From a virus, in IMG/VR virus record IMGVR_UViG_3300025000_000248: a DNA stretch of 37,620 nt. One strand, written 5' to 3'. This document shows, one piece after another, positions 1-15,836 of the stretch. Each line of letters starts with the position of its first letter. Positions within the stretch are counted from its first letter, which is position 1. Position numbers and translations under genes: made by a program. Under the pieces are notes generated by a model that worked only from the letters and a program-made list of their open reading frames with translations, made no database searches and was not told the DNA's origin.

Positions 1-90
1 TAGGGTGTCATATTATTTCTTTGATGCTAACCCCCCTTGTTTAGGCGTTTTGATGTACTGAGGGGAGGTAGAAGTGCTCCCTTTAATTTA

Positions 91-259
91 AAAAAGCTTT
101 TTAAGTATTTTAAGTATTTTAAGTATTTTAAGTATACTACTTATACTTCTTTTTATTTTAAGTAACCTTATTATATCTCTTTTTTTTAGTTTTTTAATGT
201 TTACTTTTTAAGAGTTCATCATATATACTTAAAATATTAAAAAGCTTAAAAAGCTTTTT
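91..259. repeat. AT-rich repeat region: 10-bp tandem repeat taagtatttt x about 4 (99-140) and two copies of the 12-bp palindrome AAAAAGCTTTTT (91-102, 248-259)
   Basis: Read directly from sequence; no ORF anywhere in 1-678. Confidence 0.8.
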
Positions 260-261
260 TA

Positions 262-291
262 AACCGAAAAAACCCTATGGGGGGTAGGGTT
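262..291 (-). terminator. Rho-independent terminator (minus strand): AACCCTA-ccccccA-TAGGGTT followed by TTTTTTCGG
   Basis: Perfect 7-bp GC-rich stem plus a U-run on the minus strand. Confidence 0.7.
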
Positions 292-361
292 ATTATACTG
301 TATGAAGGTTTTTATAGCTGAGAAAGATGCTTATTATACTTTACTCTCTTTTAGCTTAAAG

Positions 362-412
362 GGCCTTCGGCCCCGAGATAGTCGCCAAGGCTCCTATCTC
401 GTTTTTAGTATA
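362..412 (+). terminator. Plus-strand terminator-like tandem hairpins: GGGCC-UUCG-GGCCC then CGAGATAG-12 nt-CTATCTCG-TTTTT
   Basis: UUCG tetraloop hairpin followed by an 8-bp hairpin plus T5 on the plus strand. No plus-strand gene is evident. Confidence 0.45.
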
Positions 413-630
413 TTTAAACACGAACTGTATACTTAAGTGTTACTATTACGGATAAGCTATTATAAGTTTTTATCCTCTGTGACATAACCTGCTGAAAGAA
501 AGCTTAATATACTACCACAGATTAAACAAGAGGAAACGCTCTCCTAGGTAGGCCGTCTACGGCCAGTGTATACAGTATATTACCACCAATCCCGACTAAA
601 TCAGTCGGTATTACATTCACCCCAACAAGC

Positions 631-656
631 AGAGGAGCACCATATGGTGCTCCTCT
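631..656. promoter_or_regulatory. 26-bp perfect palindrome AGAGGAGCACCA-TA-TGGTGCTCCTCT (AGAGG...CCTCT hairpin family)
   Basis: Seen in sequence. Related members at 2760-2785, 3882-3910, 5597-5620, 7047-7070 and 14077-14102. Confidence 0.6.
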
Positions 657-678
657 TGGCTTTACGTGTCTAATATAA

Positions 679-930
679 TCACCCGCCCAGACTAACGTAG
701 TGTTTCATAGCGTTTAATGCTGATACCTTAGCTTCATTAATAAGAGCTGTATCCCCATTACCGCCCGTGCCATTTGGTACGCTGTTTAAGTTAGCACACC
801 CTGGACACTTAAACTTACTATGCTTTGGTACTAAGAACTTCCCGTGATCTATGCAACTCCTTACAGTCAAACCACTGGGCATACCAATCTGTGCTACTAT
901 GGTGTCAATAGGGCTTGTCATCTTTATCAC
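679..930 (-). CDS. Hypothetical small Cys/His-containing protein
   Basis: ORF of 83 aa in the minus-strand gene train. Confidence 0.45.
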   Translation of the reverse strand: MIKMTSPIDTIVAQIGMPSGLTVRSCIDHGKFLVPKHSKFKCPGCANLNSVPNGTGGNGDTALINEAKVSALNAMKHYVSLGG

Positions 931-933
931 TCC

Positions 934-1602
934 TTAGTCAGTAGTTTGTGCATCTTCATATTGTTTTAGGTATTCAGGAGCATGTTCCAAGTAATAAGCA
1001 TACTCTATGTCTGCTATATTCTTGTCCATCTCCTCCCACTTATCTGAAGGTACATACCTCTTAATTATCTCTAAGATAGCACCAAACTTCTTATCCTCCA
1101 GCTCACGTACTTGTTCTAGCCCAAACTCTGTAAGGCCAGCATGCTTACCTTGTGTTAACTTATTTTTCATTTCAATAGCTTTCAGTGTGTCAGATAAGCT
1201 AACCTCCTTAGCATTAAGAAGACTATCAAACCCTCGTTGTATGACCAGGTCTAGCACTTGTAATTCATTGCGCACCTTAACTTTAGCCTCTTCGTGTGCT
1301 ACAGGAGGTAGCATGATAGACTGTCTGGGAGCAGGGATACCTGCTGCACTTATGCCTAATAGCTTTTCCACAGTTATTTCTTTAGCCAAGGAGCTTTGTA
1401 ACAAGGCTTTGTACTCATACAGCTTTTGTATAGATATACTAAACCCATGTAGCCTGCACCAATCAGATAGCCTAGTGGGAGATTCCCCATCTAGTAATCT
1501 ACTGTTAAGCTGCTTTATATGTTCCCATGCACATAGTTTTTCTAACTTGTAATATTTAGTTTCAAGTTGAGTGGGTTTGTTAGGGGTGGGCACCATGACC
1601 AT
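934..1602 (-). CDS. Hypothetical protein (222 aa)
   Basis: Long minus-strand ORF, tightly spaced with its neighbour. Confidence 0.55.
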   Translation of the reverse strand: MVMVPTPNKPTQLETKYYKLEKLCAWEHIKQLNSRLLDGESPTRLSDWCRLHGFSISIQKLYEYKALLQSSLAKEITVEKLLGISAAGIPAPRQSIMLPPVAHEEAKVKVRNELQVLDLVIQRGFDSLLNAKEVSLSDTLKAIEMKNKLTQGKHAGLTEFGLEQVRELEDKKFGAILEIIKRYVPSDKWEEMDKNIADIEYAYYLEHAPEYLKQYEDAQTTD

Positions 1603-1619
1603 AAAATGACCTCCTTATT

Positions 1620-1883
1620 TTATGTGAGTTTGCGTATACCAAAGTCCTTAGGGTCAAATGCAGGCTGTATTGTTAGATGATACTCACAGACAAACCCTTC
1701 AGACACTACTGCTTGACTATTAACACCGGCATGCTTGGCCACTAGCCGGTAACCGGCTGTTTGGCCACAGGCTAGGCAGGTGGGGTGAGATGAGTAGACT
1801 GACTCTTTAAAGCTAACGTCAATGTCATGGCGCGATGCGCCTAGCGCTGTGCCTAAGTCTGATCTCATTACTTCTTTACACAT
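1620..1883 (-). CDS. Hypothetical protein (87 aa)
   Basis: ORF with no recognised motif. Confidence 0.4.
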   Translation of the reverse strand: MCKEVMRSDLGTALGASRHDIDVSFKESVYSSHPTCLACGQTAGYRLVAKHAGVNSQAVVSEGFVCEYHLTIQPAFDPKDFGIRKLT

Positions 1884-2020
1884 CCTTTACATATATGATC
1901 AGTTATAAGTTGTGCTAGCTCGATCCTAGGGATGCTATGTTTCTGGTAGGCGCGCCTAGAACAATAAATTTCAATAGGCTCGCCCGCTTACGCGGGCTCG
2001 CTTTAAGCTACCCCACCCAT

Positions 2021-2280
2021 CCCATACTAATTCATCCCATACTAATTCATCCCATACTAATTCATCCCATGCTAATTCATCCCATGCTAATTCATCCCAT
2101 GCTAATTCATCCCATACTAATTCATTCAATACTAATTCATTCAATGCTAATTCATTCAATGCTAATTCATTCAATGCTAATTCATCCCATACTAATTCAT
2201 TCAATACTAATTCATTCAATGCTAATTCATTCAATGCTAATTCATTCAATGCTAATTCATTCAATGCTAATTCATCCTAT
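2021..2280. repeat. About 17 tandem copies of a 15-bp unit (TAATTCATCCCATRC / TAATTCATTCAATRC variants): iteron-like array
   Basis: Seen in sequence. Flanked by GGCTCGCTTTAAG (2000-2012) and GGCTCGCTTTATTTTAAG (2286-2303), with a GC hairpin GCCCGC-TTAC-GCGGGC at 1982-1997. Confidence 0.9.
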
Positions 2281-2397
2281 ACCTGGCTCGCTTTATTTTA
2301 AGTTATCCACTGCAGTAGCCTACCACAATAAACCCCACAAGTCACTTACTGAGCACACAAATAGAACACCCATATTACAACAAATAGAACAAGCATA

Positions 2398-2691
2398 TTA
2401 TATCTCGTCCCTACCTTTCAACATATCATTAAGCTTTCTAAATCCACCTAGTTTACACATTGAGCAGGAGGTTAAGGTTATAAACTCACTTTTATCTAGG
2501 ATACACACTACACTCATGTCAAATAGACATCCAGTAGTGCTCCAATTGCCATGCTCATCTTCAAACACAAGGCCCCCAGTTACTACTTCAATTGTTTCAT
2601 AATGCTTACACACCCCGCATATAGGGGGCACCCCGCCCGCATAGTAAGGACATCTTACTTCTGGCCTAGCTATGCACATACCCTTTTCCAC
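2398..2691 (-). CDS. Cys-rich small protein (CPYYAGG...CGVCKHY), possibly distantly related to the CPLYGCPKH family
   Basis: ORF of 97 aa with a GTG/ATG start region. Confidence 0.5.
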   Translation of the reverse strand: MEKGMCIARPEVRCPYYAGGVPPICGVCKHYETIEVVTGGLVFEDEHGNWSTTGCLFDMSVVCILDKSEFITLTSCSMCKLGGFRKLNDMLKGRDEI

Positions 2692-2759
2692 ACAACCACC
2701 CCACTTTAACCATTAATATCTTTATCTTTCGTAACTCCACATGTAAGTAAACAACTAAA

Positions 2760-2785
2760 AGAGGTATCTCACATGAGATACCTCT
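2760..2785 (-). terminator. Perfect palindrome AGAGGTATCTC-ACAT-GAGATACCTCT followed on the minus strand by TTTTAGTTGTTT
   Basis: 11-bp stem plus a U-run on the minus strand. Confidence 0.55.
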
Positions 2786-2881
2786 AACCACTATTATCAA
2801 ATGGAAATCCTAACATATACCACATATGGTGGGCTAACTGTTAGCTATTAAAAAAATTACCCCCCTAAAAGAACTGCATAC

Positions 2882-2968
2882 CCCCTCCCCCAGGGGGTTC
2901 AAAAATATCAAGGGGGTATTGAAATAGGAGTGCCCACAGGGGCTAAGATAATATACCCCCTGGGGGTA
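2882..2968. promoter_or_regulatory. Cluster of GGGGGTAT / ATACCCCC octamers in both orientations, including the palindrome ATACCCCC-T-GGGGGTAT (2951-2967)
   Basis: Seen in sequence. Lies between the 3' end of the Cys-rich operon and the next gene start. Confidence 0.5.
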
Positions 2969-2976
2969 TCAATTCA

Positions 2977-3417
2977 TTATTCTAGGTAAGCACTTGACTC
3001 CCCTACAAGTATCTTCCTAGCAATGTAACCAAGCTTATTGAGTTGGTCTGCATAATAGTTAGCACCTGTATTGAAGCATAAATCTTCTGGTAATTTTGTC
3101 CCTAGCACCTTGTTAGCAATATCTTCAGGGGCATTAGTGATGAGGTAAGCACCTGAACCATGTAGGTACAACCTGCAAGCATCCAAATATCTCTGGGCTA
3201 ATAAGTCATTTTCAGATACTTCTGAGACAGGGTTTATAATAGGGGTGTCCTCCATTGTGATAGCTAATATGGGGTGCTTAGGACACCCATATAAGGGGCA
3301 GGTGTCCATTTTAGTTATAGTACACCCATCAGGCTTAGCATGCTCACACCCATCCACACACTCACACCAACCCGTCTTAGAGAAACATACTTTTCTGTCA
3401 ACATCATTGCACAACAT
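2977..3417 (-). CDS. Cys-rich CPLYGCPKH-family protein (member A) with about 90-aa C-terminal extension
   Basis: N-terminal C-x-DV-x-x-x-C...CxCxxC...TCPLYGCPKH block, shared with 8 paralogs. Confidence 0.65.
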   Translation of the reverse strand: MLCNDVDRKVCFSKTGWCECVDGCEHAKPDGCTITKMDTCPLYGCPKHPILAITMEDTPIINPVSEVSENDLLAQRYLDACRLYLHGSGAYLITNAPEDIANKVLGTKLPEDLCFNTGANYYADQLNKLGYIARKILVGESSAYLE

Positions 3418-3420
3418 ATA

Positions 3421-3795
3421 TTAATACTCCTCTCCTAATTCATGCGCCATTGGGGCATCATAACCATCCTCTTCTAGTATGCTAGACAATTTAGTGACAA
3501 CATACCCCCGGCTGATGAGATATGGAACAGTATCCTCTGGATCTACTTCATTACCCTCCTCATCTTCAGTAGGACGCTCATCCAGTACGTGTTCTAATTC
3601 AACAGGATCATCGGTGCCTTGCACTACATATGCTTGGCGTACAGCCCCTTCGGCATCATACCACAGATAAGCAGTCATCTTAGAGAAGTCCAGAGTGCTT
3701 ACCGCACCACAATTGATGCATAAAGACTTGTTAATTTCATCCCACATACCAGTTTCTAGACACTTAGGGCATTTAGCTTTAGCTAACACATTCAC
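3421..3795 (-). CDS. Zn-ribbon (CPKC...CINC) plus acidic X domain protein
   Basis: GTG start with AGAGGAGG ribosome-binding site. C-terminal half resembles the small ORFs that partner the Cys-rich genes. Confidence 0.55.
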   Translation of the reverse strand: MNVLAKAKCPKCLETGMWDEINKSLCINCGAVSTLDFSKMTAYLWYDAEGAVRQAYVVQGTDDPVELEHVLDERPTEDEEGNEVDPEDTVPYLISRGYVVTKLSSILEEDGYDAPMAHELGEEY

Positions 3796-3837
3796 TACAC
3801 ATACCTCCTCTTAGCCCAGACCTTCGGGGCATGATTA

Positions 3838-3866
3838 ATTATATCATGAAATGGGGGAGAAGTCAA
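3838..3866 (-). promoter_or_regulatory. Sigma-A-type promoter P1: cTTACTTGACTt-N17-TATAAT
   Basis: Conserved 12-mer around -35 and a consensus -10. Confidence 0.7.
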
Positions 3867-3881
3867 GTAACCCCACGTGCT

Positions 3882-3910
3882 AGAGGAGTACACGCAATGT
3901 GTACTCCTCT
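3882..3910. promoter_or_regulatory. Perfect palindrome AGAGGAGTACAC-GCAAT-GTGTACTCCTCT
   Basis: 12-bp stem immediately upstream of P1. Confidence 0.6.
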
Positions 3911-3943
3911 TTGTAGCAAATAGATTTAATGTAGCATCTTCAA

Positions 3944-4096
3944 TTACTTGCCCTCTGCATAGAACTTAAACCATACTTCATATTCCTCTAGGTTTAGTTC
4001 TACACACATACCATCACTCAGTATGTCATCTTCATAACCCTCAGTAGTAAACACACACCCTGATTCAGGGTGATGCCAGTACACCTTAGCTGTCAC
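3944..4096 (-). CDS. Unlisted small ORF (50 aa, GTG start, GGAGGA ribosome-binding site), X-domain-like
   Basis: Translated by eye as VTAKVYWHHPESGCVFTTEGYEDD... Sits between member B and P1. Confidence 0.3.
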   Translation of the reverse strand: MTAKVYWHHPESGCVFTTEGYEDDILSDGMCVELNLEEYEVWFKFYAEGK

Positions 4097-4125
4097 AATT
4101 TATAGTCCTCCATTCTGTTACAATC

Positions 4126-4308
4126 TTATTTCACTACAGCTTTATGCCTAGGACATCCATATAAGGGGCAGGTATGCTTCTGGGTAAGCATACATATCTT
4201 GGATACATGTGAATACTGATCACACACGTCACACTTACATATATTGCTGTTACCTAATTCACCATTAAAGCATACACTAATGTTCACTTCATCACACGTT
4301 TTATCCAC
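4126..4308 (-). CDS. Cys-rich CPLYGCPKH-family protein (member B)
   Basis: ...TCPLYGCPRHKAVVK. Confidence 0.6.
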   Translation of the reverse strand: MDKTCDEVNISVCFNGELGNSNICKCDVCDQYSHVSKICMLTQKHTCPLYGCPRHKAVVK

Positions 4309-4313
4309 ATTAT

Positions 4314-4496
4314 CTACCTCCTAGTTAAGGTCTCCTCATCTGCTAAGGTACAACGCTCTACCCATATGCCGTCTTTACTCGCCATACTCTTAGCCTCTTC
4401 ATGGTCTACTGCTTCATATTCTTCTACTGTGTTATAGAACTTATCAGCATCCATGCCATATCCCTGTCTGCATCCGGCTACTACATACTTTGGCAT
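4314..4496 (-). CDS. Small acidic protein (X1)
   Basis: 60 aa, immediately upstream of member B. Confidence 0.45.
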   Translation of the reverse strand: MPKYVVAGCRQGYGMDADKFYNTVEEYEAVDHEEAKSMASKDGIWVERCTLADEETLTRR

Positions 4497-4508
4497 TTCT
4501 TATCCCTC

Positions 4509-4862
4509 CTATATCATCTTATGATGTTTTAACCTTTCTGGATAGTTAGACATGATATAATCAAATACCTCTTGTTCTGACTCAGTGTTAATTCCTTTAA
4601 CCTTTAGCTCAGAAATAGCTATATGAAATCCTGTGCCATCTTCCCCACGTACAAAGAATGTGCCATAATTTCCACGTATATTGACCTCCACAGTGAAGTT
4701 AGCAATAGGTATACTGTTAGCATTCTCTAGTTCAGCACGTATTTGCATTAGGGCTTCTGCCCAGGACTGTTTACCTGTTTGGGCATCAATTATGGCATCC
4801 TCAATTACCCTACCAATCTCTAACACTTTATCCTCAATATCAGTTGTTGTGTGATTAGACAT
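4509..4862 (-). CDS. Hypothetical protein (117 aa)
   Basis: ORF with no recognised motif. Confidence 0.5.
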   Translation of the reverse strand: MSNHTTTDIEDKVLEIGRVIEDAIIDAQTGKQSWAEALMQIRAELENANSIPIANFTVEVNIRGNYGTFFVRGEDGTGFHIAISELKVKGINTESEQEVFDYIMSNYPERLKHHKMI

Positions 4863-4879
4863 TGCTTGCTACCTCCTTC

Positions 4880-5110
4880 TTAAGACTTATAATCTGACAT
4901 ACTGTTATAAGCTTTAGGCCAATCCTGTTCTTTTACAGTAGCTTCATGCTTGGGACACCCATATAATGGACAAGTACTAACTCCAGTAGATGGGCAGGGG
5001 TCACTGGCATCCATAGAGTAATTGTGATCAATCCTGGGGCAATCTAAACATGGACACCTATCCAGGTTCTGCTCACATATGTGTATTACTTCAGGACATA
5101 GCTTACTCAT
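4880..5110 (-). CDS. Cys-rich CPLYGCPKH-family protein (member C)
   Basis: MSKLCPEVIHIC...CPCLDC...TCPLYGCPKH. Confidence 0.6.
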   Translation of the reverse strand: MSKLCPEVIHICEQNLDRCPCLDCPRIDHNYSMDASDPCPSTGVSTCPLYGCPKHEATVKEQDWPKAYNSMSDYKS

Positions 5111-5313
5111 CCCATCGACCCCAATTCATAGGCTATTAGCATGCCAAGGGGTAAAGACATCTGCTCAGAAGCCATCTTAATAGCTTCTTCCTCAGTTTCA
5201 GCATGAAACACACCTAGAACTAAGTCTCCCTGCATTTCCCTAACACTACCATCATTTTCATTTGTTACATAAGCTACGGCTATAGCTTCACTCTCCACAC
5301 ATACTAGAAACAT
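5107..5313 (-). CDS. Small acidic protein (X2)
   Basis: 68 aa; its 3' end overlaps the start of member C by 4 bp (ATGA-type overlap). Confidence 0.45.
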   Translation of the reverse strand: MFLVCVESEAIAVAYVTNENDGSVREMQGDLVLGVFHAETEEEAIKMASEQMSLPLGMLIAYELGSMG

Positions 5314-5361
5314 TTCACATACCTCCTTATATATTTGGGCATAGTTTCCGCCCCCATTTTA

Positions 5362-5390
5362 ATTATCTCACACTCCAGAGAAAAAGTCAA
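5362..5390 (-). promoter_or_regulatory. Sigma-A-type promoter P2: CTTACTTGACTT-N17-GATAAT with GTGTGA -16 element
   Basis: Conserved motif. Confidence 0.7.
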
Positions 5391-5596
5391 GTAAGATTAG
5401 GTGATATAAGGTTATCCCATGCCTGCCCAAACTAGGGCTTATCAGTAACCTCACAAAAGCTGTAAGAAAATTTGTAAGAGAATTTCTCGGAGAAGGGTTT
5501 CCCATACCGGACGGAAATTCCCTTACAAAGTTCCTATGAAGTTTGTAAGAAGGTTTGTAAGGCCGGGAATAGGCGTCCACCCCCGCAAACGCGGAG

Positions 5597-5620
5597 AGAG
5601 GATACCATGTGGTATCCTCT
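5597..5620. promoter_or_regulatory. Perfect palindrome AGAGGATACCA-TG-TGGTATCCTCT, preceded by small hairpin CCGC-AAAC-GCGG
   Basis: Lies after the stop of member D. Confidence 0.6.
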
Positions 5621-5666
5621 TTGTCCTGGCTTGCTAGTAGGTGATCTGTAATGGGAATTTACACCC

Positions 5667-5831
5667 TTAACATTTTATACTACCCATTACTATGGGACAT
5701 CCATATATAGAACAGGGAGTCCCATTATGGTAATCATAACATGCTGTCCACCTATCACAATCAATACAATAACATGAGTAGCCCTTATTACTGCACTCAG
5801 CACTAGAGATTTCCCAGCATTGTTTAGGCAT
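5667..5831 (-). CDS. Cys-rich family member D (start refined to MPKQCW...)
   Basis: ...CYCIDC...TPCSIYGCP. The track ORF was extended into the upstream overlapping gene. Confidence 0.5.
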   Translation of the reverse strand: MPKQCWEISSAECSNKGYSCYCIDCDRWTACYDYHNGTPCSIYGCPIVMGSIKC

Positions 5832-5982
5832 AGGGTGCCTGCTTTTCAGTAGCAGCACACTTTTGACATCCATAGGCTGGGCATAATCGACATCCTACAT
5901 CGCATGTAGTACAAGGACACATCTTATCCCCAATTGTGTTGTCACATACTAAATTACTCACATCAAGACACATCTTACTCAT
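5824..5982 (-). CDS. Unlisted Cys-rich family member (I): MSKMCLDVSNLVCDNTIGDKMCPCTTCDVGCRLCPAYGCQKCAATEKQAPYA
   Basis: Found by hand translation. Its ATG overlaps the stop of member E (AATGAGTAA) and there is an AAGAGGAAA ribosome-binding site. Confidence 0.5.
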   Translation of the reverse strand: MSKMCLDVSNLVCDNTIGDKMCPCTTCDVGCRLCPAYGCQKCAATEKQAPYA

Positions 5983-6187
5983 TAGTTTCCTCCTTTAATA
6001 TGGCAGTGTGTTTAGGGCACCCATATAAGGGGCAAGTACCTGAAACTGGGTGAGCACACTCACCTTCTTTAAGCTTGATATACCCATCCTCGCAGTACAC
6101 ACACGGGCAGGTACTGTATCCAGTTGCCTCCTCCCGGCAAATATCTTCACAGACTTCTACATCAACCTTATTACAAGGCTTACTCAT
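5975..6187 (-). CDS. Cys-rich CPLYGCPKH-family protein (member E)
   Basis: MSKPCNKVDVEVC...CPCVYC...TCPLYGCPKH. Confidence 0.6.
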   Translation of the reverse strand: MSKPCNKVDVEVCEDICREEATGYSTCPCVYCEDGYIKLKEGECAHPVSGTCPLYGCPKHTAILKEETNE

Positions 6188-6365
6188 TGGTACCACCAGC
6201 TAAGCTTGTCAGATTTGATAGCACTGCACCATACTTTTGACATCCATACAAGGGACAACAAATGCAATCTCCTGATAGGAAAAAATCACAATCTCCACAC
6301 TCACAATAATCATGTCCTTCACACTCACAGACTTCCACATCCACATCCCCACAAAATCTACTCAT
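6180..6365 (-). CDS. Cys-rich family member F
   Basis: MSRFCGDVDVEVCEC...CCPLYGCQKY. Confidence 0.6.
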   Translation of the reverse strand: MSRFCGDVDVEVCECEGHDYCECGDCDFFLSGDCICCPLYGCQKYGAVLSNLTSLAGGTNE

Positions 6366-6525
6366 CATCTTCAACTCCTATCTTTTTACCATCTGCATAG
6401 GTTGCTTTGTGCTCTGCACACCCATATAGGGAGCATTGCTCGCATTGTGGTATTACTGGGCACCCTCTGCACGGACATATCTGATTGGCGCATTCTCGCA
6501 GTACCTCTCTACACAGCTTACTCAT
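6358..6525 (-). CDS. Cys-rich family member G
   Basis: MSKLCREVLREC...CPCRGC...CSLYGCAEH with a GTGAGGAAG ribosome-binding site. Confidence 0.6.
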   Translation of the reverse strand: MSKLCREVLRECANQICPCRGCPVIPQCEQCSLYGCAEHKATYADGKKIGVEDDE

Positions 6526-7006
6526 CTTCCTCACCCCCACTATCTAGACATTTATATGCCATGGCATTGTCGTCTCCGTCTTTTATCACCACCCCTGATA
6601 TTGGAATTACAGTATGCCCTAAGTTAACTAGGTGCTTGATGTGCGCCTTTGCATCCTTACAGTGGCACGTATTGCAGGCATTGCCTTCGCAGTTTAAGCA
6701 CACATCCCTATCATGCTCCTCCAGGATATTCTCAAGGTGCATGGGGTCATTCAGGCCATACACCAAATACGCTGAGCTGGGTGCTGTAGTAGAGTTATCA
6801 CCCCCGTACACAAGGTAGAGGACTGGGGCAGTAGGTTCAGGCTCAGCAGTTGGCAATGGGTGCTTAGGGCATCCAAATATGGGGCAGGTGTTCAGTTTGG
6901 TAATTGCACACACACCTTGATAATTAGACTTATTTTCACACATGTTGCAGTGACATGGGTACCCCTTAGCAGTACACATCTCAATAGATACATCTTTACA
7001 TTCCAT
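6518..7006 (-). CDS. Cys-rich family member H with fused C-terminal X-like domain and second Cys cluster
   Basis: MECKDVSIEMC...CHCNMC...TCPIFGCPKH, then ...AYLVYGLNDPMHLENILEEHD... Confidence 0.6.
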   Translation of the reverse strand: MECKDVSIEMCTAKGYPCHCNMCENKSNYQGVCAITKLNTCPIFGCPKHPLPTAEPEPTAPVLYLVYGGDNSTTAPSSAYLVYGLNDPMHLENILEEHDRDVCLNCEGNACNTCHCKDAKAHIKHLVNLGHTVIPISGVVIKDGDDNAMAYKCLDSGGEEDE

Positions 7007-7175
7007 ACATACACCCCCTTATTTTCCTAAATAAACCTCAAGTGCTGAGAGGAGCCCCATGCTCCCCTCTTTCACTAGTACTTCTTGGATGAGGGAATTT
7101 AAGTACTCTCTATCCTTCTCAGATAACCCCAGCTCTGGTAAATTGAACACAACTGTGATCTTTACTTGCTCCACT

Positions 7176-7526
7176 TTATTCCCCCTTACACATGCGCTCC
7201 ATAATAGTAAGTCTGCTAATAATCATGGTGAGTACACAGGCGCTATCCAACCCATCTATCACGAATCTCTCATGTAACTCCTCGGCGGTAATGTGTTCTC
7301 CCTCTAACCACCCCATTATTTGATCTGCTACCTGGCCAAAGGCAAAACTGGTAGCTGTTGCAGTCTCCCCAGTTTCTAGGTCACTGACCTGCACCATGGA
7401 TTCATCTGTACAGGGCCCTACCTTCAATGTGACATTAAATGGTGTACCGCAACAGACACATATCCACCCCATAATATCAATGTGATGAATCTCAGTGTTG
7501 CTACAATTTGGGCATTTCGTTAACAT
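7176..7526 (-). CDS. Zn-ribbon protein (CPNC...CVCC)
   Basis: ORF of 116 aa. Confidence 0.5.
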   Translation of the reverse strand: MLTKCPNCSNTEIHHIDIMGWICVCCGTPFNVTLKVGPCTDESMVQVSDLETGETATATSFAFGQVADQIMGWLEGEHITAEELHERFVIDGLDSACVLTMIISRLTIMERMCKGE

Positions 7527-7543
7527 CTACATACCTCCCTACT

Positions 7544-7813
7544 TTAATCCCAATAATTACTACCTACTGTATTTACTCCAAGCTTATATAGTTCTCTTAA
7601 GGTTATCTCTAGAATCTTTTCATTGGGGATAGCAGCAATGATGCAAGCGTTAGCTTCAATAGTACTGAGATCAAATGCTTGACCAAGATGAACATTCAGA
7701 AATACATGAAAATGTGGGTATTCAGTAGCTTTAAAGTCATCAACATTAGGGGGTGTCACCAATCCAGTGCCTTCAACATTGTACATACAAGGGTTAAAAA
7801 ATGCTACAGCCAT
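7544..7813 (-). CDS. Hypothetical protein (89 aa)
   Basis: ORF with no recognised motif. Confidence 0.45.
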   Translation of the reverse strand: MAVAFFNPCMYNVEGTGLVTPPNVDDFKATEYPHFHVFLNVHLGQAFDLSTIEANACIIAAIPNEKILEITLRELYKLGVNTVGSNYWD

Positions 7814-7861
7814 TTACATACCTCCTCTTATTTTCTGTGGGGGCATTCTTCCCCACACCCA

Positions 7862-7890
7862 ATTATATCACAAAACAGAGGAGAAGTCAA
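7862..7890 (-). promoter_or_regulatory. Sigma-A-type promoter P3: CTTACTTGACTT-N17-TATAAT (TTGTGA -16 element)
   Basis: Conserved motif. Confidence 0.7.
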
Positions 7891-7926
7891 GTAAGGTTAG
7901 GTGTTATGGGCCTAAGCATGAGAAGG

Positions 7927-7956
7927 TAAAGAAAATAGCCCTTGTAGGGGGCTATT
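7927..7956 (-). terminator. Terminator hairpin AAATAGCCC-TTGTAGG-GGGCTATTT plus TTTCTTT on the minus strand
   Basis: 9-bp stem plus a U-run. Confidence 0.6.
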
Positions 7957-8197
7957 TGTCTACTAATTTCTACTCCTCCTGAATAGATCTGCATACATTA
8001 ATGAGACTGTGCACTAATCCTACAGATGCTGCTAAATGGCCACCCTAACCACCAAGATATAAACTTGCGGCACTAACGCATACCTCCATGCTTATTATCT
8101 TCTCCCTCAGGTTCTTTGCTCATGCACATAAAGATAAGCACCATCCACGCACCTAATCCAGCTAATATGGTTGCTGCACTTATCATGCATAATGCCA

Positions 8198-8461
8198 TCA
8201 TTCTTTACCATCCTCACTACCCTTCCTATACCATATAACTGTATTCCACATGGACTTAGAAGTATCCATGTCGCCAACCGCAATAACAATATACTCAACT
8301 AATAAATAAGCCAATAACCACGGAGGAACTACTAGATGTTTTAATCTTACACCTCCATTTAGGTACTTCATATTAAAGTCTCCCGCATGGTATCCTATAA
8401 AAAGGATTACAGCACTTACGACAAATATTGTAACACTTATTATCCCAAACGCTATTAACAT
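8198..8461 (-). CDS. Small membrane protein
   Basis: Hydrophobic N-terminus. Confidence 0.45.
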   Translation of the reverse strand: MLIAFGIISVTIFVVSAVILFIGYHAGDFNMKYLNGGVRLKHLVVPPWLLAYLLVEYIVIAVGDMDTSKSMWNTVIWYRKGSEDGKE

Positions 8462-8658
8462 ATCCCCGCACTCCTCACTTTAATGTCTTCCACCCAGCCA
8501 TCTACGAACTTGCCTAGTTCCTCAAAGGGTGCTCCTTCTAGGTGACTCCCATACTTCGACTGAGCAATCTCTAGGTAAGTAGCTATATCTTTGGTACTAA
8601 CTCCTAAAGGTTCCAACCCTGCCACTAACATGAAATATAGAGCTTGGTGCTTAGTCAT
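8455..8658 (-). CDS. Hypothetical protein (67 aa)
   Basis: ORF with no recognised motif. Confidence 0.4.
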   Translation of the reverse strand: MTKHQALYFMLVAGLEPLGVSTKDIATYLEIAQSKYGSHLEGAPFEELGKFVDGWVEDIKVRSAGIC

Positions 8659-9145
8659 TTCTGGGTCTCACCGCAGTAGTCACTTCTTGTGACACCACCG
8701 CTGGCTTCCAATCACCTGAAGGTCTAAATTTAGATAGGTCTCCCCCAGTCTCTAACAAGGCATTAAGCTCTCCCCATTGTTCTGAGGTCATATCACGCTG
8801 TATGTACGTATCCCACCATTCATACCAAGCTTTATATGAGTCGGTACGATCTACATGCTCTCCAGGTTTAGGGTCAGGGATCTCTACTCCGAACCTACGT
8901 GATTGCATCACAGCAAACTCTAAGGCATATTGTGCCCGTATCATGTCATCAGCAACTTCTATTGGCATTGGCATACCGATTTCATGATTCAATTGGCTAG
9001 CATGTTTCACATTGTGAATAAACCTATCCAGCACATCAATTATACCATATACCCCATATTCGGAACCAGACTTAAGTATTTCCACCCCCTTCTTCATAAT
9101 AAATGTGCCAGGATCTATGCCCCATTGTAGGTGTAGGTTTAACAT
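8651..9145 (-). CDS. Hypothetical protein (start refined to MLNLHL... with AAAGAGGAGGA ribosome-binding site)
   Basis: ORF with strong Shine-Dalgarno sequence. Confidence 0.5.
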   Translation of the reverse strand: MLNLHLQWGIDPGTFIMKKGVEILKSGSEYGVYGIIDVLDRFIHNVKHASQLNHEIGMPMPIEVADDMIRAQYALEFAVMQSRRFGVEIPDPKPGEHVDRTDSYKAWYEWWDTYIQRDMTSEQWGELNALLETGGDLSKFRPSGDWKPAVVSQEVTTAVRPRND

Positions 9146-9200
9146 GAGCTTGTCCTCCTCTTTCATATTGAATAAGCCCACATATAAGTGGGCTTATTCT

Positions 9201-9416
9201 TTATTCAGCGCTCCAAGATGCGCCACACAGGTCACATGTAAACATTGCGTACCCATGTGGAAGTTCTATGCTAACAGCACCACCACCATCCTCGCGCCTG
9301 GGGTCACAAGCGTCTAGGAGTTCTTGCCTTTTCACCTTATTAGCTAATAGAACCTCTTCCTGAACAGCTATGTCTGCATTGAGCTCAGTTAACGCCTTAA
9401 TACTTATGCTGTCCAT
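9201..9416 (-). CDS. Hypothetical protein (71 aa)
   Basis: AAGGAGG ribosome-binding site. Confidence 0.5.
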   Translation of the reverse strand: MDSISIKALTELNADIAVQEEVLLANKVKRQELLDACDPRREDGGGAVSIELPHGYAMFTCDLCGASWSAE

Positions 9417-9581
9417 TTACTTGCTAACCTCCTTAATTCTTAAGGGACAAGTTTCCCACTCATCGAGATGGGGGCACTCGGCACCATCATAGCATCTCCT
9501 CTTAGTAGGCCCCTTGAAAATGAAACATAAATAAGTGATAACACTAACCAAGATTATGCTCCCGGAAATAATCAGATCCAA
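9417..9581 (-). CDS. Unlisted small membrane protein ORF (54 aa, TTG start)
   Basis: Hand translation LDLIISGSIILVSVITYLCF... Its stop abuts the next ribosome-binding site and start codon. Confidence 0.3.
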   Translation of the reverse strand: MDLIISGSIILVSVITYLCFIFKGPTKRRCYDGAECPHLDEWETCPLRIKEVSK

Positions 9582-9592
9582 TATATAGCCCC

Positions 9593-9889
9593 CTAGTACA
9601 GATTAGAACTGCCTCCGCTATTAACTCCCAGCCACCCCACCATGGCCAATATGGCCACTACAATAGCCACCCCACCCTGAGCACGTGTAGGCTCTTTGAT
9701 TAGAGCTATACCACCAAAGATAAACCCAACAAAGGGAAACACACAAGTAAGGCTAAGAATTACCCCCAGCTTAACCATAGACCAAGGCTTAACCTCTTTG
9801 GCTAGAACCTCACTTTTAGTAGGCTCCCCACAGTTTGGGCAGTGTAATGCGTTGGCAGACATATCCTTACTACAGTTTTTACAGAACAT
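9593..9889 (-). CDS. Zn-ribbon plus 2-TM membrane protein
   Basis: CKNC...CPNC then hydrophobic segments. Confidence 0.5.
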   Translation of the reverse strand: MFCKNCSKDMSANALHCPNCGEPTKSEVLAKEVKPWSMVKLGVILSLTCVFPFVGFIFGGIALIKEPTRAQGGVAIVVAILAMVGWLGVNSGGSSNLY

Positions 9890-9960
9890 AGTAGATGCCT
9901 CCTAATTATAAACTCAGTATCTTCAACCGCAGTTCTATTTAATCTATTCACCTCTTGTAC

Positions 9961-10227
9961 TTAGTCGTGGAAAATAAATAGACCCATAGCCCCAAATATC
10001 ACAAACAATATCAACCAACCAAGTAAAGTATACCCGATGTCATCCCAAGGTACTTCATAATAATGTGGCGTTTCCTTATCTTCTTTAAGGTGAGGTAGGG
10101 GACAATCACTGGGTATGTAATCACCATCACCAGGATGCCCCTCTTTTAATTTGTCCCAGTACACAAACATACCTACTTCTCCATGTGGACAATGATAACA
10201 ATCATTTACTGATACTTTTGCACACAT
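9961..10227 (-). CDS. Small protein with C-terminal TM helix
   Basis: ORF of 88 aa. Confidence 0.45.
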   Translation of the reverse strand: MCAKVSVNDCYHCPHGEVGMFVYWDKLKEGHPGDGDYIPSDCPLPHLKEDKETPHYYEVPWDDIGYTLLGWLILFVIFGAMGLFIFHD

Positions 10228-10480
10228 GCGTTTAAAGAAACTTATTCTTCTTTAAGAATAGCCTCCCTACACTTCAATTCATCACCTTAATCAGTTCATC
10301 TACCCCTCTCCTATAATCAGGTTTAGCTCCCACCACACTTAGCGGGAGCCTAGTCCTTATGGTATTAGCCTGTTAAAGAAATCATATACAACAGGTGTCG
10401 TTTTGACAAGTACATATCCAGTGATTACTGTTTTTAGGACTTCTTGTATCACAAGATGAACACCCATCTTAGTTCCCCCT

Positions 10481-11158
10481 TTATCCCAACAATTTAGCAT
10501 CTCGCAATGCCATTATGCAATACATGCGGAGTATCCTCAAATCACCCTTAGCATCTTTCACTTCCAAGTCATTATCCATGGTCATTTGCACTAACTGCTC
10601 TGTAGTGTAGGCAGCATATTTGGACTTAGACTTACCCCCAGTCTTCTCCTTAGGGAAGTGTAGCTCAACAATCGCCATAGCCACACGCATACGCCAGATA
10701 GCCTCATGGTCTGTGACTTTAATGTCGGAGAGAATACCTTCCAGATCAGCCCACTCCATAAGCTCATCAATAGAGAGCTTCTTAATAAACTTCTGTAGAG
10801 GTTTCTTCTCCTTATAAGTACCCTTCTCTGGATAAGTTACATCTGATATCACCGCAGGCTTACCTTGAAGCTTAGGTGCAGGAGTTTCTAGTGGAGGCTC
10901 CTCCTCTTCATCAGTGTTTTCCACCTCTTCAGCAGCAACAGCTACCTCATCCTCAGTGGCATTGTCCAAGGAGGTTTCCACCTCATCTAGAACTTCCAGT
11001 TCAGGCTCTTCATCAATATTGTCCCCGCCATCCACGATAACTCCTGGATATAGACCTGCCTCGATGTCCCGAGTAGTAACACGGGGTACTCCCAGTTCCA
11101 CAGCTAGTTCTTTAAGGGAAGATACCTCTTTGCCATTAACCATATACATTTTACTCAT
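10481..11158 (-). CDS. Hypothetical protein with long acidic (D/E-rich) linker
   Basis: ORF of 225 aa. Confidence 0.5.
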   Translation of the reverse strand: MSKMYMVNGKEVSSLKELAVELGVPRVTTRDIEAGLYPGVIVDGGDNIDEEPELEVLDEVETSLDNATEDEVAVAAEEVENTDEEEEPPLETPAPKLQGKPAVISDVTYPEKGTYKEKKPLQKFIKKLSIDELMEWADLEGILSDIKVTDHEAIWRMRVAMAIVELHFPKEKTGGKSKSKYAAYTTEQLVQMTMDNDLEVKDAKGDLRILRMYCIMALRDAKLLG

Positions 11159-11218
11159 TCACATACACTCCTTCATATTGTTATAGTGGTCGTAGGGTGC
11201 TCCCCGACCCGTTGAATA

Positions 11219-11248
11219 ATTTTATCATGGGGGTGGGGGGGAAGTCAA
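11219..11248 (-). promoter_or_regulatory. Sigma-A-type promoter P4: CTACTTGACTT-N18-TAAAAT
   Basis: Conserved motif. Confidence 0.6.
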
Positions 11249-11412
11249 GTAGACTTAGTTGATAGAGCTTTAAGCATCTGATCTTCAGTGTCCCTTGTAT
11301 TCATATCTTCCATAACTAAGCATAATAGGATTTTTAGCTCAAGTCGGGAGTATCCATGTGATATTTCTTGTAACTCATCTCTGAGGGTTGATAATTCCTT
11401 AACGCTGAACAC
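11245..11412 (-). CDS. Unlisted small ORF (55 aa, GTG start, TAGGAGGT ribosome-binding site)
   Basis: Hand translation VFSVKELSTLRDELQEISHG... Confidence 0.3.
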   Translation of the reverse strand: MFSVKELSTLRDELQEISHGYSRLELKILLCLVMEDMNTRDTEDQMLKALSTKST

Positions 11413-11423
11413 TTACATACCTC

Positions 11424-11705
11424 CTAATCTTTTATATCTGGCCCGTATATAGTAACTAAAACTGAGGCACTTTTAGGCCTATTCTTTATGATCCTTAGTA
11501 CTAATGTGTTGTTAGCAGTAGGGTCTGAATGAATTATCACCCTATTAGCATCCAGTATATCGGATTCTGGTCTATTAGATGTAGGACTTTGATGTGCATT
11601 TATTCCTTCCTTAGCTAAAGCAGCCATAACTCTAAGTTCAAACTGGGAGTAACTCTGATCTATCAATCTTCTGCTCTCCCCTATTTCATTGCTTTTGTCT
11701 TTCAT
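11424..11705 (-). CDS. Hypothetical protein
   Basis: ORF of 93 aa. Confidence 0.45.
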   Translation of the reverse strand: MKDKSNEIGESRRLIDQSYSQFELRVMAALAKEGINAHQSPTSNRPESDILDANRVIIHSDPTANNTLVLRIIKNRPKSASVLVTIYGPDIKD

Positions 11706-11716
11706 CTGTATGTCTC

Positions 11717-12046
11717 CTACACTATAGTAATGTGATCACTGAAGACATCTAAAGGGAGCCACCGTACACTCTTATCCACCAGATATGGAGAAACATACTC
11801 AAACCCAATAAAGTATCCAGCTAGTGTCTCAGCTATTTCCTCACTCCAGAAATTCTTATCTGAGATGTACTCCGCTATGTACTCTCCGGCTTCTTTAGGA
11901 ACACTGATAGCAGGCTGGATTTCCACCACTTTGATAGTACCTTCCATGAGGCTAGACCACCCAGTGCTAGGATGAATCTTGTAGTGCACATTAAGCACTA
12001 TGGATTCACAAGGTCTAGCTACACCTTCCATTGTAATTACATTCAC
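11717..12046 (-). CDS. Hypothetical protein
   Basis: ORF of 109 aa. Confidence 0.45.
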   Translation of the reverse strand: MNVITMEGVARPCESIVLNVHYKIHPSTGWSSLMEGTIKVVEIQPAISVPKEAGEYIAEYISDKNFWSEEIAETLAGYFIGFEYVSPYLVDKSVRWLPLDVFSDHITIV

Positions 12047-12090
12047 TCACACATACCTCCTTATCTTGCGTGGGCTTCGCCCCACGATTA

Positions 12091-12119
12091 ATTTTACCAT
12101 GGGCTGGGGGAAAAGTCAA
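12091..12119 (-). promoter_or_regulatory. Sigma-A-type promoter P5: CTTACTTGACTT-N17-TAAAAT
   Basis: Conserved motif. Confidence 0.65.
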
Positions 12120-12144
12120 GTAAGGTTAAATGGTATGAAAGCGT

Positions 12145-13996: not shown

Positions 13997-14046
13997 TATA
14001 CATACCTCCTGTTTAAATTAAAGTAAGGTTCTCTGAACCTCCCCTA

Positions 14047-15833: not shown

Positions 15834-15836
15834 CTA

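Follow-up and report, generated by a model that had tools for sequence, protein, structure and literature searches.

A tandem array of nine eight-cysteine mini-protein genes in an SPO1-like phage from aquifer metagenomes

The array and its cysteine scaffold

The DNA analysed here (the window, 37.6 kb) is a contig of a Herelleviridae/SPO1-like phage from aquifer metagenomes. It encodes homologs of gp32 and of SPO1 gene 33, two sigma-like proteins, a UvrD helicase 54% identical to that of Bacillus phage CP-51 and, at 10481-11158, a relative of the SPO1 gp25.1/gp51-like proteins. Between 2977 and 7006, on the minus strand, lie exactly nine genes (FAM1 to FAM9, Table 1) whose products have a common eight-Cys scaffold, C-x6-7-C-x5-14-C-x-C-x2-3-C-x4-15-C-x2-8-C-[PS]-x-[YF]-G-C. 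A preliminary description of this DNA had listed nine such genes, and all nine ORFs were found where it had placed them. It had also begun the array at 2398; however, ORF 2398-2691 is Cys-rich but encodes a different protein, which did not match the family HMM. A six-frame scan of the whole window for the terminal knuckle, C[PS][LIA][YF]GC, returned 9 matches, all in the nine genes; by chance, 200 first-order Markov simulations gave a mean of 0.02 knuckle matches, and of 0 for the complete multi-Cys pattern.

In MAFFT alignments the family cysteines fell in register, with M1, C1, C2, C3-x-C4-x2-C5, C7, G and C8 as invariant columns, and C6 was also invariant once the alignment had been corrected. 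Thus, the eight conserved cysteines that had been proposed survived proper alignment, as did the C-x3-G-C core of the knuckle. The full CPLYGCPKH, previously called invariant, is exact in just 3 of the 9 paralogs, the others carrying CPLYGCPRH, CSIYGCPIV, CPAYGCQKC, CPLYGCQKY, CSLYGCAEH and CPIFGCPKH. Likewise, an M-S-K-x-C start is found in part of the family, but other members begin with MLC, MEC, MDKTC or MPKQC. Outside the cysteines, the glycine is the sole invariant residue of the scaffold; all eight cysteines and this glycine are retained without exception across the paralogs and their alleles, and distant phages keep them too. The remaining sequence is nearly all different, as had been noted (mean non-Cys identity among the nine paralogs 29%, range 16-44%). 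Members have 8-10 cysteines in 52-76 residues (~11-17%), and 22 of 23 have a net charge of 0 to -14, thiolate charges not counted. FAM1 and FAM9 do carry the C-terminal extensions ascribed to two members. Overall, the 8-Cys module occurs in fusions with C-terminal domains of three different kinds and with one N-terminal domain; the C-terminal domain of FAM9 has a second Cys cluster and is homologous to that of ORF124 (E=2e-10).

The family genes belong to three operons, each with a conserved host-sigma-A-type promoter-like element directly upstream. This element (TACTTGACTT-N13-TGnKATAATT) has 8 conserved copies, with 0.03 expected, all on the minus strand and co-oriented with the genes, and three of these stand at the head of family operons. 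The genes abut or overlap, as described before: 8-nt overlaps occur at five junctions, with ATGAGTAA/ATGAGTAG at four of them and ATGCCTAA at the fifth. An SD-like sequence lies upstream of 8/9 starts, FAM4 having only a weak GCAGG. The GC-rich hairpin that follows FAM4 may be the end of its operon.

Table 1. Features of the array region (window coordinates)
Feature	Position	Strand	Description
Promoter-like element	7861..7893	-	TACTTGACTT-N13-TGnTATAATT; 11/12 consensus positions plus TG extension; heads ORF89, ORF116, ORF51, FAM9 to FAM4
ORF89	7544-7813	-	Non-family; ahead of six-gene run (region 7019..7813)
ORF116	7176-7526	-	Non-family; N-terminal CxxC..CxxC ribbon; 47% conserved in related phage
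ORF51	7019-7174	-	Non-family; ahead of six-gene run
FAM9	6518..7006	-	162 aa; 8-Cys module residues 1-48; knuckle CPIFGC; HMM E=1.7e-24
FAM8	6358..6525	-	55 aa; short type (C6-x2-C7); knuckle CSLYGC; 8-nt ATGAGTAA overlap with FAM9
FAM7	6180..6365	-	61 aa; CPLYGCQKY; net charge -9
FAM6	5975..6187	-	70 aa; long-loop type; CPLYGCPKH
FAM5	5824..5982	-	52 aa; shortest member; CPAYGCQKC; 8-nt overlaps on both sides
FAM4	5667..5831	-	54 aa; CSIYGCPIV; last of run of six
GC-rich hairpin	5598..5619	-	GAGGATACC-ACAT-GGTATCCTC; ~50 nt after FAM4; no T-run; kept in strain contig L017; putative operon end
Promoter-like element	5361..5393	-	Heads ORF68, FAM3, ORF117, ORF60, FAM2 (and ORF50)
FAM3	4880..5110	-	76 aa; CPLYGCPKH
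FAM2	4126..4308	-	60 aa; GTG start; CPLYGCPRH; SD-like TAGGAGG upstream
Promoter-like element	3837..3869	-	Heads ORF124 and FAM1
ORF124	3421..3795	-	Classical CxxC..CxxC ribbon fused to C-terminal domain like that of FAM9
FAM1	2977..3417	-	146 aa; 8-Cys module residues 1-48, then unrelated C-terminal domain
Terminator-like hairpin	2953..2969	-	Directly 3' of FAM1; from consensus scan only
Knuckle-coding DNA repeat, 27-31 nt	4946..4972 (example)	-	Direct-repeat families D2/D3; 65-93% identical
Further copies of the repeat	3274-3300, 4144-4170, 5689-5719, 6008-6034, 6231-6257, 6409-6435, 6860-6886		Direct-repeat families D2/D3

Relatives and strain-level variation

An HMM search of 1.84 billion protein representatives, a check suggested in the preliminary description, returned ~30 distinct members, each of them on a phage-like contig from metagenomes. 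The family had been thought undescribed, and in support of this its profile had no match in Pfam, NCBIfam, PHROGs or PDB, and a literature search found the motif in no published paper. The exhaustive HMM search detected no member in cultured phages, nor did tblastn of the single-copy L024 sequence against them. The AlphaFold2 models were of low confidence (pLDDT 44.5 and 60.6), and structural comparison gave no fold match. Judged by its sequence, the family is an undescribed, phage-restricted mini-domain of ~45 residues, whose eight conserved cysteines are compatible with two tetrahedral metal sites.

A related 141.8-kb phage has the same architecture, with 10 promoters and 9 family members, and a different gene order. 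FAM6 is 57% identical to its ortholog there; the neighbouring non-family early genes are equally diverged between the two phage species (34-47%). Among strains, the family genes are a hotspot of diversity: the strain contigs were identical across kilobases of adjoining genes but had 7-16 differences clustered in FAM1, FAM3-7 and FAM9, and family alleles recur across independent assemblies. Polymorphism across the strain contigs peaks in FAM4, at 21 SNPs per 100 bp, and FAM7 occurs as two alleles on otherwise identical backbones (8 differing positions, including a 3-nt indel). Copy number was 9 or 10, the tenth member lying after FAM4 in contigs L017/L018, which also carry the one frameshifted copy seen (FAM6). 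The claim of local duplication and diversification is borne out: this is a genuine multigene family of nine diverged paralogs.

In two alleles, recombination has left sharp breakpoints that coincide with the knuckle-coding DNA or lie just beyond it. The FAM1 allele of P0011/L086 combines a Cys module that differs at the paralog level with a 98%-identical remainder, the breakpoint falling exactly at the knuckle DNA. The FAM3 allele of L086 is ~98% identical up to the knuckle (4 differences in ~210 aligned bases), and past it is divergent and has an additional Zn-ribbon extension. From these sequences we infer that the knuckle-DNA repeat is a recombination joint.

Allelic dN/dS was 0.08-0.73, never reaching 1, so positive selection found no support, and the values indicate that the family diversified as old alleles recombined, under purifying selection. 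Moreover, dS was raised along with dN in the family alleles. This points to imported old alleles, although a simple recombination hotspot would also be compatible with it. Such a hotspot is the core of a reading that we consider rather unlikely, in which a fast-turnover accessory family has no specific host-directed role and the knuckle repeat drives unequal crossing-over and gene conversion; similarly doubtful is its corollary that copy-number change and mosaic alleles arise without diversifying selection. The location of the breakpoints, the joint rise of dS and dN with omega below 1, the frameshifted copy, the variable copy number and the rarity of the family in public data would all fit. 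Yet the lowest omega values (0.08-0.16), which show constraint on the family genes, and the universal retention of the eight cysteines and the glycine argue against this reading; in addition, ~nine copies are kept in both phages although their flanking proteins differ by 7-50%, and the family genes lie behind the strongest promoter consensus of the region.

A possible host-directed role and its alternatives

We tentatively favour another explanation, that the family consists of early-expressed, acidic, Zn-stabilised modules that bind host proteins in the service of takeover or anti-defence, and that were diversified by duplication and cassette-like recombination. Here we infer that the members bind metal as well as proteins, that they are made early and that their targets belong to the host. 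The eight invariant cysteines would stabilise the fold, probably by forming two Zn(Cys)4 sites, with three inter-Cys loops free to vary in length and sequence. Host RNA polymerase would transcribe the array right after infection from the three conserved sigma-A-type promoters, with translation presumably coupled across the 8-nt overlaps, and the small acidic products, whether on their own or in fusions with various effector or adaptor domains, would bind and neutralise host proteins. The repertoire would be built through tandem duplication and its diversity maintained as diverged alleles and paralogs recombine homologously, the knuckle-coding DNA (...TGYCCNYTNTAYGGNTGYCC...) being a putative built-in crossover point that swaps loop modules onto different tails.

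Host-takeover or anti-defence effectors had been proposed from the start, and this claim stands in part. The SPO1-like phage, the sigma-A-type promoters upstream, the small acidic proteins and the strain hotspot support it; the clustering of strain differences in family genes between conserved neighbours is an arms-race-like population pattern. On the other side are the dN/dS values below 1, the equal divergence of neighbouring non-family early genes between the two phage species, the lack of homology to known takeover or anti-defence proteins in our searches, and the single copy found in the replication/DNA-methylase module of small phages. Note that the takeover genes of SPO1 are described as small early genes with strong promoters and ribosome-binding sites (PMC6873191). 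The array region resembles that module in its Herelleviridae-type phage, its many small genes in short operons, its strong host-sigma-A-type promoters and ribosome-binding sites, and in being fast-evolving and rich in ORFans, but no family member resembled a SPO1 gene product in the HMM search or, for the L024 sequence, by tblastn. To our knowledge, the proteins of the SPO1 module are not Cys-rich, nor does that module consist of arrayed paralogs. With phage accessory or anti-defence islands, such as those of anti-CRISPR genes or the T4 internal-protein genes, the array has in common small and (here probably) early proteins, a patchy distribution, fast turnover, presence or absence depending on the strain, and the shuffling of alleles at a fixed genomic position. 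However, the family showed no homology to any known inhibitor, and such islands usually mix unrelated genes, whereas the array is a nine-fold expansion of one scaffold.

Another possibility, also an unlikely one, could be that the members are nucleic-acid-binding zinc fingers, acting as phage transcription or replication regulators or as DNA-modification partners (cf. Ogr/Delta, Com). In a separate lineage of ~50-kb phages, the single-copy member immediately follows DNA polymerase A and is itself followed at once, or overlapped, by a C5 cytosine methylase or HNH gene; this placement hints at an ancestral role in DNA metabolism, against the host-directed reading. In L020, a member precedes a DUF1351 gene of a similar replication module. 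Zinc-ribbon and zinc-knuckle domains (Pfam Zn_Ribbon_1, DZR; the Ogr/Delta and Com fingers) are likewise mini-domains whose fold presumably depends on a Cys4-bound metal, with knuckle-like C-P-x-x-G-C and C-x2-C elements, and are used as modules in fusions; here, one type of C-terminal domain stands behind an ordinary ribbon in one protein and behind the 8-Cys module in another. The eight cysteines, two putative Zn sites and terminal C-x4-C also superficially recall CXXC-type DNA-binding fingers, which is a lead only. However, the family has eight ligands instead of four in a unique spacing (C-x6-7-C ... C-x-C-x2-3-C ... C ... C-x4-C), no Pfam zinc-finger model matched any of 28 members even at E<=10, and nine paralogous regulators within one operon system would be unusual. 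The acidic charge, with no conserved basic patch, also favours a binding module over a DNA binder.

Less probable still are metal-cluster or metal-buffering proteins, either ferredoxin-like Fe-S carriers or metallothionein-like manipulators of host metal or redox homeostasis. The C7-P and C8-P dipeptides resemble the C-P of ferredoxin motifs, but the CxxCxxCxxxCP spacing is not present. Metallothioneins are similarly short and Cys-rich, with C-x-C and C-x2-C motifs, and 3/28 members matched them weakly (best E 0.042, all far under the 23-bit gathering score); nevertheless, the Cys content of the family is well under theirs, and its eight fixed positions, long variable loops, domain fusions and phage origin are unlike them. 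Hypervariable loops and fusions would be unexpected for an electron carrier or metal sponge, and extra diverged copies would not help bulk metal binding.

Finally, Cys-crosslinked RiPP precursors or targeted loop hypermutation, by a diversity-generating retroelement (DGR) or similar, are highly improbable and largely refuted within the window: the peptides are small and Cys-rich with conserved ends but have no leader/core architecture or signal peptide, and the scanned window ORFs include no reverse transcriptase, radical-SAM, YcaO or lanthipeptide enzyme and the window no template repeat. Like phage DGR targets, the family has a conserved scaffold with localised hypervariable positions, and substitutions cluster in short gene segments on clonal backgrounds; however, the ordinary, symmetric spectrum (129 transitions, 41 transversions, no adenine bias) rules out a DGR, and strains share the variant tracts in the form of recombined alleles, the variation coming from duplication and recombination.

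The eight-cysteine family and its distribution

The nine small ORFs that the preliminary description had recognized as paralogs lie exactly where it placed them, on the minus strand between 2977 and 7006, and encode proteins of 52-162 aa (FAM1 to FAM9, listed in the table). They share the pattern C1-x6-7-C2-x5-14-C3-x-C4-x2-3-C5-x4-15-C6-x2-8-C7-[PS]-x-[YFH]-G-C8, a single module of about 45 residues, which fits all nine window genes and about 20 sequences carried by other contigs. A six-frame scan of the 37,620-base window identified the nine family ORFs as the sole matches to C[PS][LIA][YF]GC, the C-terminal motif that we call the knuckle; in Markov-simulated sequences the expectation was 0.02 knuckle matches on average, and none to the full multi-cysteine pattern. 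The conserved cysteines do align, as had been proposed: whether the alignment comprised the nine proteins, twelve, or 24-28 non-redundant members from several contigs, the eight cysteines and one glycine were in register and were the only invariant columns. Family HMM E-values ranged from 1e-9 to 1e-24, and identity outside the cysteines averages 29% among the nine paralogs. The knuckle is less uniform than the invariant CPLYGCPKH originally reported, since this exact string occurs in three of the nine copies and the rest carry CPLYGCPRH, CSIYGCPIV, CPAYGCQKC, CPLYGCQKY, CSLYGCAEH or CPIFGCPKH. The proposed start of the array at 2398 also had to be abandoned, because the ORF found there encodes a different Cys-rich protein, unmatched by the family HMM. 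This protein begins C-x8-C-P-Y-Y-A-G-G...C-x2-C, is 61% identical to its ortholog in a related 141.8-kb phage and has no database match.

The family had been considered undescribed, and in agreement with this Pfam, PHROGs, NCBIfam and the PDB sequence set contained no match to it, a PDB profile search returned nothing and the motif string was absent from the literature searched. When 1.84 billion cluster representatives were searched exhaustively with HMMER, 21 hits reached E<=0.001, 19 of them true members and two of them repeat or giant proteins matching the knuckle only. Word-index searches with the FAM9 C-terminal domain or with a 28-sequence profile added no new members, and current public data hold about 30 distinct family sequences. 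These are distributed among (i) the window phage and its strain variants, with nine copies, or ten, one of them frameshifted, in the divergent strain contigs L017 and L018; (ii) the related 141.8-kb phage (contigs L001/L002, IMGVR_UViG_3300024999_000044), with nine copies in the same region and with the same promoters, arranged in a different order from the window, the array lying 4-24 kb from a contig end; (iii) a different phage from the same samples, on contigs of up to 183 kb, with one copy carrying an 80-aa N-terminal extension; and (iv) a lineage of phages of about 50 kb, whose single copy lies behind DNA polymerase A plus a conserved protein of 85 aa and ahead of a C5 DNA methylase or HNH gene, together with a few short contigs bearing one copy each. 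Note that in the group (iii) phage a GmrSD_N (DUF262) protein is encoded among many small genes.

Outside these phages, a degenerate DNA pattern encoding C-P-x-Y-G-C-P-[KE]-[HY] revealed no true member, and no prophage or cellular copy, in bacteria and archaea (one genome for each of 185,579 species); its 41 hits there were chance matches, none with the eight-cysteine module. In 241 million metagenome records this pattern detected only the same aquifer phage population and one P0017-like contig. A tblastn search with one member as query, run on 50,697 genomes of cultured phages (INPHARED), was negative; a hit in Alicyclobacillus phage MMB025 (E=2), adjoining a DNA methyltransferase, lacked the cysteine pattern when translated. 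When searched as a single sequence, FAM1 hit Elongator Elp3 (E=0.002); this too was attributed to chance, as only three cysteines aligned, the match fell in the TIM-barrel part of Elp3 and the profile did not reproduce it. Therefore, the family is real, new to the databases and rare, and it is apparently restricted to phages.

Coordinates of the features discussed (window positions unless another contig is named)
Feature	Position	Strand	Remark
FAM1	2977-3417	minus	family member
FAM2	4126-4308	minus	family member
FAM3	4880-5110	minus	family member
FAM4	5667-5831	minus	family member
FAM5	5824-5982	minus	family member
FAM6	5975-6187	minus	family member
FAM7	6180-6365	minus	family member
FAM8	6358-6525	minus	family member
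FAM9	6518-7006	minus	family member
Promoter-like element	7861-7893	minus	heads ORF89, ORF116, ORF51, FAM9, FAM8, FAM7, FAM6, FAM5, FAM4
Promoter-like element	5361-5393	minus	heads ORF68, FAM3, ORF117, ORF60, FAM2
Promoter-like element	3837-3869	minus	heads ORF124, FAM1
Other promoter-like elements	12090-12122, 14046-14078, 15836-15868, 19108-19140, 24461-24493; also about 11219-11248	minus	
Terminator-like hairpin	2953-2969		after FAM1
Leader/promoter regions	5314-5666, 7814-7957		intergenic
Cys-rich ORF outside the family	2398-2691	minus	97 aa, about 10 Cys
Small zinc-ribbon proteins	3421-3795 (ORF124), 7176-7526 (ORF116), 9593-9889	minus	N-terminal classical CxxC...CxxC ribbon
ORF with PF26856 label	10481-11158	minus	225 aa
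Vault-domain protein	19440-21968	minus	842 aa; major-vault-protein shoulder (E=6e-26) and Vault_3 repeat domains
SPFH/Band-7 protein	27833-28726	minus	297 aa, separate from the vault-domain protein
SPO1 gene-33 homolog and adjoining sigma region-2 protein	30499-31337	minus	region-2 protein 179 aa, gp34-like
Sigma-like protein	33908-35284	minus	458 aa
15-bp tandem array	2018-2277	plus (unit)	17 copies, within intergenic 1884-2397, between ORF87 and ORF97
AT-rich tandem repeats	99-184		contig left end; 9-bp unit x4, 30-bp unit x2
Frameshifted FAM6 ortholog and tenth member after FAM4	L017 788-1010, 1332-1493		L018 likewise
GmrSD_N (DUF262) protein	L013 7177-8193		phage encoding family protein P0024

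Strain variation and junctions at the knuckle

Family orthologs of the window phage and the 141.8-kb relative share 34-57% identity, compared to 50-93% for flanking proteins. Several interspersed non-family genes of the region are just as diverged (34-47%); at this depth the whole early region evolves fast, not the family alone. The comparison of strains is more informative. Eleven independent assemblies of the window phage were compared, using the assembled contigs rather than reads. Blocks of neighbouring genes showed 0-1 differences per block, while clusters of 7-16 differences were located inside FAM1 (restricted to its Cys module), FAM3, FAM4-7 and FAM9. Variation elsewhere was confined to the tandem-repeat region, to some intergenic or left-end sequence of single contigs, and to the ORF51-ORF89 block of contig L008, which has four differences. 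Since identical variant blocks recur across samples and assemblers, they are alleles and not assembly errors. A divergent strain (L017/L018), about 90% identical to the window over the six-gene run FAM9 to FAM4, has a FAM6 ortholog broken by a frameshift and, after FAM4, a tenth family member that is absent from the window strain.

The substitutions comprised 129 transitions and 41 transversions, with a symmetric spectrum and no adenine bias. In all 14 allele pairs omega was below 1 (0.08-0.73, Nei-Gojobori) and all the cysteines were kept, which indicates that the family genes are translated and constrained, as far as sequence can tell, in line with the original proposal; no positive selection was detected in these 14 comparisons. 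Between adjacent genes dS ranged from 0.03 to 0.69, a spread that marks mosaic recombination between old alleles.

Two junctions can be seen directly, both in contig L086. The FAM1 allele of this contig (P0011) has about 55% identity to the window upstream of CACCTGYCCCTTATATGGGTGTCCTAAGCAC and 98% from there on. Its FAM3 allele is about 98% identical up to the knuckle (all but 4 of about 210 aligned bases); past the knuckle, successive 30-nt windows show 73%, 67% and about 50% identity, and the allele runs on into a different tail that has a Zn-ribbon extension. The paralogs have in common a direct repeat of 27-31 nt (65-93% identity) made up of the knuckle codons, and we infer that this repeat serves as the crossover site at which loop modules and tails are shuffled. 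Where the window strain has lost the tenth gene, the missing stretch also seems to stop close to a remnant of the knuckle, although this alignment is weak.

Promoters and candidate roles of the family

All genes of the family region are on the minus strand. A strongly conserved promoter-like element, TACTTGACTT-N13-TG-n-(G/T)ATAATT, includes a TTGACT -35 box, a 17-nt spacing and an extended -10 (TGnTATAAT in the copies heading the family units). Eight copies are present in the window, compared to 0.03 expected, always co-oriented with the genes, and the related phage L001 contains ten further TACTTGACTT-type elements, all but one co-oriented. These are presumably the early promoter set of this phage lineage. 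The six contiguous members, FAM9 to FAM4, overlap by 8 nt at ATGAGTAA-type junctions, each stop thus falling within the conserved M-S-K start of the following gene, and an SD-like sequence precedes eight of the nine family starts, FAM4 showing just a weak GCAGG. The two intergenic leader/promoter regions have 76-79% nucleotide identity to the related phage and are among the DNA best conserved with it, above many flanking coding regions; Rfam gave nothing credible in 1-12000, and nothing in the two leaders.

In SPO1, promoters of the TTGACT/TATAAT type belong to the early class and are read by host sigma-A. The family shares with the SPO1 takeover module small genes, short operons, strong sigma-A-type promoters and SD-like sites, judged by consensus matches alone. 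The host-takeover genes of SPO1 have been described as small and early, with strong promoters and RBSs (PMC6873191). By likeness to these promoters and genes, expression of the family would be early. Homology to SPO1 gp37-gp60 was found neither among the 1.84 billion representatives, which gave no cultured-phage hit, nor by tblastn of one member against INPHARED, nor in PHROGs. We would class the family among the early accessory gene clusters of phages; the domain from which it is built had not been described before, and its inferred recombination joint is an unusual feature.

The eight invariant cysteines, the lack of any signal peptide or hydrophobic segment in the members and the cytoplasmic phage context point to a putative Zn(Cys)4 metalloprotein. 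The module occurs alone, with short acidic tails, and fused to three unrelated C-terminal domains (in FAM1, FAM9 and the L086 allele of FAM3) or to one N-terminal domain (P0024, the group (iii) member). Since the C-terminal domain of FAM9 is homologous to that of ORF124 (E=2e-10), where a CxxC...CxxC ribbon replaces the module, the eight-cysteine module and an ordinary ribbon may play equivalent roles. Zinc ribbons are alike in principle, yet the family failed every profile test: no zinc-finger Pfam model reached E<=10 in the nine window proteins or recurred in the 28 members, and the NCBIfam and PDB profile searches gave no zinc-finger or zinc-ribbon match.

The reading that we favour, with less than even confidence, is that of a mini-scaffold stabilised by Zn, with variable loops, which would be synthesized early from host-type promoters. 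Its products would bind host proteins, for takeover or anti-defence, as the strain hotspot and the promoters could suggest; tandem duplication would have expanded the gene set and recombination at the knuckle would reshuffle it. If this is true, phages make many host-protein binders from a new eight-Cys scaffold of about 45 residues, and the locus is a clear natural case of a repertoire diversified by duplication and conserved-motif recombination, not hypermutation. It would also enlarge by one family the list, as yet short, of Herelleviridae-type early effectors, offer compact, possibly engineerable binding domains, and provide a locus for following phage-host conflict by population genomics in a well-studied aquifer community.

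A more elaborate proposal, which we consider unlikely, is that the zinc-scaffolded mini-binders form a repertoire with built-in cassette shuffling, that is, combinatorial inhibitors tracking polymorphic host defence proteins. Here the invariant knuckle codons would be metal-binding element and homologous crossover site at once, and recombination between paralogs or co-circulating strains would keep recombining loop modules with tails or effector domains, as a recombination-based counterpart of DGRs and antigenic-variation cassettes.

About as improbable is a turnover-prone accessory family that sits at a recombination hotspot and has no specific host-directed role. Even so regarded, the family would deserve a database entry as a new domain, though its reach would be narrow, with about 30 distinct sequences now public. 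We likewise doubt that the proteins are regulators that bind DNA or RNA, or that they partner DNA-modification enzymes. The single-copy context, adjoining polymerase and methylase, is in favour of such a function; since the members are acidic (net charge 0 to -14 in 22 of 23) and metal-bound thiolates would add negative charge, their composition argues against general DNA binding.

Fe-S or metal-buffering proteins seem still less probable. FAM5 reached 12.9 bits (E 0.13) with the metallothionein model PF00131, against a 23-bit gathering threshold; only three of 28 members were hit at all (best E 0.042), and cysteine makes up about 11-17% of single-domain members, compared to the criterion of about 30% for metallothionein. 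The two CxxCxxCxxxCP motifs required of a 2[4Fe-4S] ferredoxin have a spacing absent in all aligned members, and there was no Pfam Fer4 hit. Finally, DGR targets and RiPP precursors are essentially refuted for the window, the former because the scanned window ORFs contain no RT domain and the spectrum is free of adenine bias, the latter as no radical SAM, YcaO or LanM protein was found in the window and conservation extends across the whole module rather than being confined to a leader. What probability remains goes to an explanation outside those considered.

The phage genome around the family

The window encodes a UvrD-type helicase, an ATP-dependent ligase, a 5'-3' exonuclease, a gp32-like SSB, two sigma-like proteins, an SPO1 gene 33 homolog, an SPFH protein and a large protein with major-vault-protein domains. 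The helicase shares 52-54% identity with its counterparts in Bacillus phages CP-51 and SPO1, which makes the source of the window a distant Herelleviridae-like phage. No cultured phage is closely related to it: megablast of 25 kb against INPHARED gave no hits. Public records with the same proteins come from aquifer groundwater metagenomes. The gene-33 homolog and the sigma-like proteins suggest an SPO1-style sigma cascade. MVP-like proteins are unusual in phages.

Three other small proteins, presumably early, bear classical ribbons at their N-termini, and the region overall is rich in zinc-module fusions. The 225-aa protein encoded further along carries a precomputed annotation, PF26856 (Phage_SPO1_gp51), which was not reproduced by hmmscan against a local Pfam copy, where no family was found; a weak tblastn link (about 32% identity) connects it to SPO1 gp25.1 and to related proteins that occur in several copies in Bacillus phages.

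Two repeat regions were also observed. The 15-bp tandem array, with unit CATCCAATGCTAATT, is missing from the 141.8-kb related phage, and its region differs at 84-111 aligned positions between otherwise near-identical strain contigs; it could represent iterons or a protein-binding array, and the long ORFs spanning it are probably repeat artefacts. The 9-bp unit of the left-end repeats is TTTTAAGTA.
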